Positions 9,402-10,638 of a DNA stretch of 64,000 bases are shown one piece after another. Origin of the DNA: Escherichia phage Esco_phi_B-01; the sequence record OP292222.1; one strand, 5' to 3'. The notes beneath the pieces are model-generated. The model ran no database searches. It saw nothing but the letters and a program-made list of their open reading frames with translations, and was not told where the DNA came from. The position numbers and the translations under genes were made by a program. Position 1 is the stretch's first letter. Each line of letters starts with the position of its first letter.

Positions 9402-9856
9402 TGAAAACCGAAGATTTTGCTCAAGGTCTATACGTTGCTGCAAAATTCTCTGAATTGACTTTAGATGCGCTGGAAAATCTTCAGCGCACTTTAAAGGTTC
9501 CTAATCCAGTTCCTCGTGAAAAATTCCATTCTACAATCTGCTATTCAAGAGTCAACGTTCCATACACCGTTGCATCCGGAAGTTTTGAAGTTGCTTCTAC
9601 AGGACATCTTGAAGTGTGGAAACATGGCGATTCTCCCGTCTTGGTACTGGTTCTCGATTCAGAGTATCTTAAATGCCGCCATCAGTATGCTCGTACCTTA
9701 GGTGCTACGCACGATTTCGATGATTATACCCCTCATATCACATTGTCTTATAATGTAGGACCTCTTACCTTTAGTGGAGATGTCCAGATTCCTGTCGTTT
9801 TAGATAGAGAATATAAAGAACCCTTGAAGCTCGACTGGGCCGAGGATTTAAAATGA
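9401..9856 (+). CDS. 57B: gp57B-like conserved protein
   Basis: 151 aa directly after 57A (T4 57B 152 aa). Confidence 0.65.
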
Positions 9857-10062
9857 AAACCTACAGCGAATTCTTAACAGAAGCAATGGAATCCGCCTCT
9901 TCGGTGGCAATAGAGGTTTCTTGTACTCCTGAAGAATTTAAAGAAAGCCTGAAAGGTATAAATTGGCTTTCAGGAGAGTTATCTAATGGGGTTGCCTACT
10001 TCTTTGGTCCTCAATCGGATATAGATAGCTGGGTCTCTGAAAATTCTTCATGGCTAAAATAA
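9853..10062 (+). CDS. internal-protein-like small protein with capsid targeting sequence
   Basis: N-terminus [11 protein letters not shown] matches the T4 IPI/IPII/IPIII capsid targeting sequence with an LxE site. Confidence 0.6.
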
Positions 10063-10080
10063 TTTAAACTAAGGAACAAA

Positions 10081-10335
10081 ATGAAAACTTACTCTGAATT
10101 TTCTGAAAAATCTCTAACTGAATCCTCACATGGTATGGAAGTAAAACTTGGTACGGCTTTGGCTGAAGCCGAACGTTTGTTCGCGCGTATTAAAGAACTT
10201 GCTGATTCTGTTGACCCGGGTTCCTTTAAAGGTGACCAGACTAAAGTTAAAGCTCTTTTGGCTCTGTGTTCTGATGCCGGTGAAATTGCTAAGAATGGCT
10301 CTAAGATGAAGAAACGTCTGGAAGACCTAAAATAA
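10081..10335 (+). CDS. internal-protein-like small protein with capsid targeting sequence
   Basis: N-terminus MKTYSEFSEKSLTE. Confidence 0.55.
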   Translation: MKTYSEFSEKSLTESSHGMEVKLGTALAEAERLFARIKELADSVDPGSFKGDQTKVKALLALCSDAGEIAKNGSKMKKRLEDLK

Positions 10336-10347
10336 TTTAAAAAAGAT

Positions 10348-10395
10348 GTTTACAAGGTCTATAGGCATGATACTATAGACCTATCAAAACAAACT
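10348..10395 (+). promoter_or_regulatory. PeSL early promoter cassette
   Basis: GTTTAC 10348-10353, 17-nt spacer, TACTAT 10371-10376; inverted repeat GGTCTATAG/CTATAGACC. Confidence 0.65.
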
Positions 10396-10413
10396 AACCA
10401 CATGGAACCCAAA

Positions 10414-10638
10414 ATGAAAACTTATCAAGAATTTATTACAGAAGCTAAAAAGCACGAAGACCAGCTGCCGGTTGTTACAAAAACCTTTGATGGTACACTG
10501 GCCGATTTTAAAAAAATCCCTAGTGATAAACTTGCTAAATTGACCGGAAGCATCAGCGAAAAAGATGGCAAGGTTACGTTTTCTGCCCAAGGCACCGCCA
10601 ATCTTAAAAAACTTTTGAAAGCCGCTGGTGCAGAATAA
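10414..10638 (+). CDS. internal-protein-like small protein with capsid targeting sequence
   Basis: MKTYQEFITEAKK at the second in-frame ATG. Confidence 0.6.
   Translation: MKTYQEFITEAKKHEDQLPVVTKTFDGTLADFKKIPSDKLAKLTGSISEKDGKVTFSAQGTANLKKLLKAAGAE

Follow-up and report, generated by a model that had tools for sequence, protein, structure and literature searches.

What do the small genes lodged between 57B and trna.4 of a T4-type phage encode, and how does one phage come to carry a set that its relatives do not share? The question is raised by three consecutive small open reading frames (ORFs) of Escherichia phage Esco_phi_B-01 (OP292222.1), here ORF-A, ORF-B, and ORF-C, of which the surrounding 64,000 nt were analyzed (the window; all coordinates are window positions, Table 1). 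By its sequence, the phage is a T4-type Dhakavirus resembling JS98, IME08, and IME281: a megablast search with 9401-10900 matched 150 phage records, the best being Dhakavirus genomes at 91-97% identity and at most 84% coverage of the query. On the + strand, gp3, gp1, 57A, 57B, the three ORFs, trna.4, trna.3, trna.2, and three tRNA genes, the sole matches of an Rfam scan, follow one another; with internal-protein genes in the place of the ORFs, this order is common to the window, T4, and Dhakavirus genomes. In the T4 record the slot between 57B and trna.4 holds a single gene, ipI, and a preliminary description of this DNA was correct in placing an array of three consecutive small ORFs beside 57B at the position of T4 IPI. 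The locus is the 57B-trna.4 'ipI' hyperplastic locus, one of two variable internal-protein loci (the other lies next to e), and it holds three internal-protein cassettes: the unnamed ORF-A, Ip5, and Ip8. We consider it likely that these genes encode head cargo packaged by a leader, that the cargo has an anti-nuclease role by analogy, and that the cassettes are shuffled between phages.

The packaging part of this explanation comes from the N-termini. All three ORFs start with MKTY(S/Q)EF, and the more general pattern MKT[YF]x[EK]F, for which a chance expectation of 0.003 occurrences was obtained over all six frames of the window, was observed five times (9853, 10081, 10414, 13239, and 22022), every time at the start of an ORF. 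In the capsid targeting sequence (CTS) of T4, residues 4 and 7 determine capsid targeting and residues 8 and 10 determine processing, the motif of the gp21 protease being L/I-x-E (PMC9026906). The targeting determinants Y4 and F7 are present in all three proteins, and the processing determinants are found in ORF-A (L8-T-E10) and in ORF-C (I8-T-E10, within the leader MKTYQEFITE). The ORF-B leader reads MKTYSEFSEKSLTES, with S8 and K10, and its sole L-x-E is L12-T13-E14; this extended layout is shared with RB15 Ip5 (ITE at 13-15) and T4 IPI (ITE at 17-19). A predicted gp21-type L/I-x-E site closes the leader in three of three ORFs. The preliminary description had read all the leaders as MKTY(S/Q)EF(L/I)TEA, which is right for ORF-A and ORF-C and wrong for ORF-B, where the site lies at 12-14 rather than 8-10, but judged from the leader sequences its underlying point survives this detail. 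As in T4, the N-terminal CTS would bind each protein into the prohead scaffolding core, a gp21-type head protease would remove the leader after E10 in ORF-A and ORF-C and after E14 in ORF-B, and the mature proteins (6.4-7.5 kDa) would stay in the DNA-filled head until they are ejected with the DNA. The head gene cluster, with the gp21 prohead protease and the gp22 scaffold, is located outside the window.

Two of the three proteins can be named. ORF-B is, on sequence grounds, Ip5: over the full length of 84-85 aa it shares 86% identity with the Ip5 proteins of RB15 (Z35082), RB14, T2, and about 260 other Tequatrovirus records (E 5e-41); T6 likewise has an Ip5. Cleavage of its extended leader, MKTYSEFSEKSLTE, would leave a mature form of 70 aa with an isoelectric point (pI) of 8.8, and the predicted mature N-terminus, SSHGMEV, is identical in ORF-B and RB15 Ip5. 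The leader itself has diverged from that of known Ip5 proteins (MKTFKEFATKTTITE), and the surroundings differ as well, since Ip5 directly follows 57B and has a promoter element in RB15, RB14, and Bas37, whereas here it lies behind ORF-A and lacks a separate promoter. A look-up of the exact ORF-B sequence returned no contig. ORF-C is by the same kind of comparison Ip8, being 85% identical to RB15 Ip8 over 74 aa (E 5e-28) and 96% identical to the 'internal virion protein' of IME281; its predicted mature form comprises 64 aa (pI 9.5), and its AlphaFold2 (AF2) model is a small alpha/beta domain with a predicted local distance difference test (pLDDT) score of 81. Ip8 also occurs at the equivalent locus in Klebsiella T4-like phages, and ORF-C shares leader and locus with the Ip8 of RB15 and with the 'internal virion protein' of Dhakavirus and Klebsiella phages, from which it differs in its neighbors only (Ip5 upstream; trna.4, not Ip9, downstream). 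An in-frame ATG at 10402, four codons upstream of the ORF-C start (10402-10413), would give MEPKMKTY...; it is present in IME281 and absent in JS98 and RB15, and it overlaps the likely ribosome-binding site, so that 10414 is the probable start.

ORFs of this size might in principle be chance open frames, and the three are indeed short (69-84 aa) and match no Pfam or NCBIfam family. Against this stand full-length PHROG matches (E 1e-27 to 1e-45), protein-level conservation across 28, 496, and 107 phage records for ORF-A, ORF-B, and ORF-C, respectively, Shine-Dalgarno sequences at the correct distance, a leader motif hardly to be expected by chance, and confident AF2 models for both ORF-A and ORF-C. 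The probability that remains for chance frames is negligible, and conservation refutes that reading.

ORF-A appears from database searches to be a narrow and often unannotated family. Its 28 phage records are complemented by five clusters among 5.8 billion proteins, and an exhaustive phmmer search over 1.8 billion proteins added four further representatives; the family is distributed over Dhakavirus, EcS1, an Erwinia phage, and Citrobacter Moonvirus phages. Four giant or repetitive phmmer matches to ORF-A (5326, 3323, 1108, and 248 aa) were rejected as score accumulation over FN3-like or duplicated repeats. The homologue is uncalled or 'hypothetical' in JS98 (segment 1453-1662), JS10, and IME08 (segment 1953-2162), and in JS98 and Ec2-ASingh it has a GTG start (translated VKSYKEFLTEA). 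The ORF-A start overlaps the 57B stop (ATGA), a coupling also seen in EcS1 and CF1, and the predicted mature form is 59 aa long with a pI of 4.1.

Could ORF-A then be a non-virion protein, with a leader that is a relic kept as recombination homology and a cytoplasmic early product co-expressed with Acb1, the anti-CBASS phosphodiesterase family of 57B? Its lack of a promoter of its own, its coupling to the early gene 57B, an acidity of the mature protein that is unlike known internal proteins, and its status as hypothetical or missed in JS98, JS10, and IME08 would all fit. In all homologues, however, the protein sequence of the leader is conserved, including residues 4 and 7 and the L/I-x-E-A junction; leader and E-A-M-E/D junction persist even in members whose bodies are only 44-54% identical or whose start codon is GTG, and both fold and profile of ORF-A resemble Ip6, a leader-bearing inhibitor of McrBC. 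We therefore regard a non-virion ORF-A as distinctly improbable.

The resemblance to Ip6 emerged from several comparisons. The AF2 model of ORF-A (pLDDT 80), again a small alpha/beta domain, had three Foldseek matches among the predicted viral structures of BFVD, namely the Merlin homologue, an unnamed protein, and VR7 Ip6, the last with a template modeling (TM) score of 0.70 and E 3e-3. With leaders removed, BLAST aligned 37 residues of ORF-A and Ip6 at 24% identity, with a GP-x3-I-x2-W motif present in both, while hhalign of the bodies alone gave P 6.8e-4 over 55 columns, yet a probability of only 11%. In a search with a hidden Markov model (HMM) of the ORF-A body, two Ip6 genes ranked right after the family itself (E 0.009 and 0.047), with noise starting from E 2; the phmmer search over 1.8 billion proteins gave no link between ORF-A and Ip6. 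Ip6 (T6, VR7, and Bas37_0260) has the leader, similar size, locus, and predicted fold in common with ORF-A and differs from it in a body identity of only about 18-24% and in its pI (6.5-7.8, against 4.1). A distant relationship between ORF-A and Ip6 is likely but unproven.

Among themselves, the three bodies are unrelated at the sequence level, as had been proposed: pairwise BLAST gave zero matches, and a relationship between the ORF-A and ORF-C (Ip8) bodies was rejected, with an hhalign probability of 0.2% for the family bodies. A caveat is that the AF2 models of ORF-A and ORF-C share one order of elements (leader helix, strand, helix, strand, strand, helix). Searches of the three proteins against Protein Data Bank (PDB) sequences yielded nothing above noise, the matches being chiefly antibody chains and ubiquitin (E >0.002).

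What such cargo may do is suggested by proteins of the same kind. According to later papers that cite it, Repoila et al. (1994) already described variable internal-protein loci, a shared leader, and promoter/stem-loop sequences, and the count of internal-protein variants had passed 30 by 2007. IPI* inhibits GmrSD of E. coli CT596. Silas et al. (2025, PMC12373910) show that a single GmrSD variant is blocked by each of T4 Ip1, Ip2, and Ip3, with no cross-protection, and predict similar activities for the remaining genes in the two loci. The HIDEN-SEQ preprint (bioRxiv 10.1101/2025.11.20.689424) reports that leader-bearing Bas37_0260 from the ipI locus inhibits McrBC; in Bas37 (MZ501089; segment 354-921), this protein is Ip6 (78% identical to VR7 Ip6), and Bas37_0261, annotated 'ipI', is Ip5, being 100% identical to RB15 Ip5 and 86% identical to ORF-B. 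Supplementary table 7 of the same preprint, which compares K-12 with uropathogenic E. coli (UPEC) CFT073, lists insertions in Bas37 Ip5 as 4-fold depleted in CFT073 (log2 fold change -2.09, adjusted p ~0) and insertions in 57B as 3-fold depleted, with the opposite for Ip6 insertions; the depletion is a hint of a host-specific role of Ip5. T4 IPI itself has the genomic slot, a leader type with an L/I-x-E site, small size, and a PeSL-like (promoter/stem-loop) context in common with the window genes, and its mature part lacks sequence similarity to ORF-A, ORF-B, or ORF-C. The earlier proposal that CTS-bearing cargo at the ipI locus consists of candidate injected anti-defense effectors is thus supported, by analogy, through the identity of Ip5 and Ip8, the targeting residues, the L/I-x-E sites, and the targets of Ip1-3 and Ip6, and the anti-restriction reading is well supported on this analogy, with the three proteins as candidates. 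The idea itself goes back to Repoila et al. (1994), as cited by later authors, and is put forward again by Silas et al. (2025). The most likely function would be to inhibit, stoichiometrically, host nucleases that attack modified cytosine DNA; these targets would be Type IV enzymes (GmrSD/BrxU-like or McrBC-like), of which each protein would counter a different variant.

The chemistry of the DNA bears on the choice of target. Because the window contains RB69-like cytosine-modification genes (Table 1), the phage DNA is probably arabinosylated, not glucosylated at hydroxymethylcytosine as in T4. This RB69-like cluster (54486-58690) also includes a 297-aa protein of unknown function (phrog_3891) where T4 has beta-gt. 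The GmrSD-family enzyme BrxU cuts glucosylated and arabinosylated DNA alike; a Type IV target therefore remains plausible.

An injected effector might also act on something other than a Type IV enzyme, such as other nucleases or sensors or systems linked to Acb1 (anti-CBASS). The translational coupling of ORF-A to 57B/Acb1, kept in EcS1 and CF1, points in this direction, as does the joint depletion of 57B and Ip5 insertions in CFT073, and phages that likely differ in DNA modification (Tequatrovirus, Dhakavirus, and Klebsiella Marfavirus-type) all have Ip8 at 85-90% identity. Yet all internal proteins whose targets are known to date act on Type IV enzymes, and promiscuous GmrSD-family enzymes of the BrxU type make the wide spread of one inhibitor compatible with a Type IV target, so that we consider targets of another sort unlikely.

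The packaged proteins could also have a role other than inhibition of a specific defense enzyme: they could neutralize DNA charge, or help core or head assembly or DNA ejection. Mature Ip5 and Ip8 are basic, like the DNA-associated internal proteins of T4, T4 IPIII mutants show head-assembly aberrations (PMC9026906), and Ip5, Ip8, and ORF-A are without a known target. ORF-A, however, is acidic, the internal-protein genes of Bas37 are non-essential (bioRxiv 10.1101/2025.11.20.689424), and specific Type IV restriction targets are by now attributed to Ip6 and to all three T4 internal proteins. Near-identical phages differ, moreover, in the genes they carry at the locus, a pattern more in keeping with an arms race than with a structural requirement. 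A purely structural or physicochemical role is in our view quite unlikely.

Several points nevertheless tell against an ipI locus of packaged anti-nuclease cargo. Beyond the leader, BLAST found no similarity of ORF-A, ORF-B, or ORF-C to IPI*, Ip2, or Ip3, and Foldseek searches of the ORF-A and ORF-C models against the PDB matched no solved structure below E 0.1. The link of ORF-A to Ip6 is only marginally significant, the reciprocal Ip6 HMM leaving ORF-A within the noise (E ~6), and the acidic pI of mature ORF-A is at odds with the basic T4 internal proteins (pI 9.0-9.7). Virion proteomics covering Ip5, Ip8, or ORF-A was not found in the literature, and the phenotype of Ip5 insertions is taken from a single supplementary table and is not discussed by the authors. 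The targets known from T4 may not transfer directly, given the probable arabinosylation of the DNA. Finally, no exact T4 late-promoter motif (TATAAATA) is present in 9100-10700, the nearest upstream being at 6419, which makes expression at the time of prohead assembly an assumption.

How, then, are the cassettes delimited? Two PeSL-like elements, each an early promoter with a stem-loop, lie between genes of the locus. The first carries a perfect 10-bp inverted repeat (10355-10364/10373-10382; stem AGGTCTATAG/CTATAGACCT) that overlaps its promoter, folds at -17.5 kcal/mol (z -4.2), and is conserved in alignments with IME281, JS98, Ec2-ASingh, and RB15; the second is 91% identical to it over 32 nt and has a weaker fold (z -2.3). 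The gap between ORF-A and ORF-B measures 18 nt, with no promoter-like site in a promoter scan and no fold. Two genes had been credited with a PeSL promoter of their own in the preliminary description, a claim that does not hold: only ORF-C has one, and the second element precedes trna.4. The pairing of an intergenic early promoter with a stem-loop is repeated at cassette borders and kept at the equivalent junctions in relatives, as in the PeSLs of RB49 and phi1, which mark insertion/deletion junctions (Arbiol 2010; Comeau 2014). The elements here differ from those PeSLs in an A+T-rich stem that lacks the GGGG...CCCC motif and overlaps the -10 region, and comparison did not support homology. 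The A+T-rich stem agrees with the view of Arbiol et al. that the elements associated with T-even internal proteins are analogues, not homologues, of the RB49 PeSLs.

The gene sets found between 57B and trna.4 show how freely these cassettes combine. Where the window has A-Ip5-Ip8, IME281 and IME08 have A-Ip8-Ip9, WG01 has A-Ip8-Ip9-Ip7, VR5 and AnYang have Ip8-Ip9, JS98 has A and a 97-aa leader-bearing ORF, and Ec2-ASingh has A-Ip5; RB15 carries Ip5-Ip9-Ip7-Ip8, RB14 Ip5-IPI, Bas37 Ip5-Ip6, and VR7 five leader-bearing genes, CF1 has a 106-aa leader-bearing ORF followed by A and then Ip7, and EcS1 and T4 hold A only and IPI only, respectively. The exact set A-Ip5-Ip8 was not seen in any of the records compared, the closest being PQ561418 (A-Ip5) and then IME281 (A-Ip8-Ip9). 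The five tandem genes of VR7 (segment 7897-9472) include two with divergent leaders, MQTLHEFLVEN and MNIKTYNEFLAES, and only some of the five are annotated as internal proteins.

The borders of the cassettes are more uniform than their contents. All cassettes end in (C/T)TAAAATAATTT, followed by the promoter element. The ends of ORF-A and Ip5 carry two copies of a 15-nt direct repeat, and alignment with IME281 and JS98 puts the Ip5 insertion exactly between these copies. The gene set would have been shuffled between phages and genera by recombination at three conserved types of joint, namely leader sequences, (C/T)TAAAATAATTT at the gene ends, and the early-promoter/stem-loop elements that separate one cassette from the next. 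The exchange appears to have reached beyond single cassettes. The 57B gene is 85% identical to T4 57B, and 57B, Ip5, and Ip8 are all about 85% identical to their Tequatrovirus counterparts, whereas gp3, gp1, 57A, trna.3, and trna.2 are only 49-63% identical to the T4-side counterparts and trna.4 is 70% identical (7812-9401 and 10898-11590 compared). This difference between block and flanking genes indicates, as far as sequence identity can tell, that 57B and the internal-protein genes have been exchanged as a block between genera.

On these observations a more specific proposal can be built, which we put forward tentatively and hold to be more doubtful than the account given so far. ORF-A may represent an unrecognized acidic, Ip6-like class of leader-bearing head cargo, translationally coupled to Acb1 and conserved as the first gene of the array (Dhakavirus, Kagamiyamavirus, Moonvirus, and an Erwinia phage), that would be injected as an inhibitor of a modification-dependent nuclease, McrBC-like or other, attacking arabinosylated-cytosine DNA. 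The block of 57B and internal-protein genes would then move between genera as one anti-defense island with an early-expressed and an injected arm.

Leaders of the same type occur elsewhere in the window. A 207-aa ORF starting with MKTYNEFLNES is located past the tRNA genes and belongs to neither of the two classical internal-protein loci; 29 nt upstream of it there is an exact T4 late-promoter motif (13203-13210), and all 138 phage records with this ORF label it 'hypothetical'. The second internal-protein locus (21450-23116) contains, between the lysozyme gene e and denV, an IPIII homologue only and no ipII homologue. An ORF resembling HNH/homing endonucleases (phrog_10820) is located at 43818-44435, just upstream of the gp47/gp46 recombination nuclease genes.

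Table 1. Features of the 57B-trna.4 locus and of other regions of the window that are discussed in the text.
Feature	Position	Strand	Evidence or remark
gp3	7812-8402	+	
gp1	8402-9163	+	
57A	9156-9401	+	
57B, Acb1 anti-CBASS phosphodiesterase family; left border of the variable locus	9401-9856	+	Pfam PF23474 Acb1, E 8.8e-59
ORF-A, 69 aa, unnamed leader-bearing internal-protein-like gene	9853-10062	+	phrog_23867 (unknown function)
15-nt direct repeat CTAAAATAATTTAAA, left copy (ORF-A end)	10054-10068	+	copies 100% identical, 273 nt apart
ORF-B, Ip5 orthologue by sequence, 84 aa, MKTYSEFSEKSLTESSHGMEV...	10081-10335	+	phrog_3499 internal head protein, E 7.6e-45
15-nt direct repeat, right copy (Ip5 end)	10327-10341	+	repeat search
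First PeSL-like element, before ORF-C	10336-10413	+	TTTACA, 16 nt, TG-TACTAT at 10349-10376
ORF-C, Ip8 orthologue by sequence, 74 aa, MKTYQEFITEAKKHED...	10414-10638	+	phrog_8765, E 1.2e-27
Second PeSL-like element, after ORF-C, precedes trna.4	10639-10709	+	TTTACA, 17 nt, TG-TACTAT at 10648-10676
trna.4 homologue; right border of the variable locus	10710-10898	+	phrog_1692; annotated trna.4 in IME08, JS98, T4
Three tRNA genes	12149-12381	+	
Leader-bearing ORF, 207 aa	13239-13862	+	phrog_2280 (unknown function)
IPIII homologue, 198 aa, MKTYKEFITEA	22022-22618	+	phrog_5341 internal virion protein, E 2e-113
Fused gene resembling nucleoside triphosphate (NTP) transferase and aminoglycoside kinase, 567 aa	54486-56189		RB69-like cytosine modification
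Thymidylate-kinase-like gene	56569-57105		
Thymidylate-synthase-family gene	57102-57800		gp42 position

Literature and GenBank annotation already contain the concept, the locus, and two of the three genes, with ORF-A as an overlooked relative, so the gain would be incremental rather than conceptual. Internal proteins delivered together with the DNA act before phage genes are expressed and are in this sense a first-line counter-defense, and they help to set the host range of therapeutic T4-like phages. Targets are known only for Ip1, Ip2, Ip3, and, from a preprint, Ip6, and not for Ip5, Ip8, or the ORF-A family. The locus of Esco_phi_B-01 offers a compact set of three such genes, from a phage whose DNA is probably arabinosylated, that can be screened against variants of GmrSD, BrxU, and McrBC.

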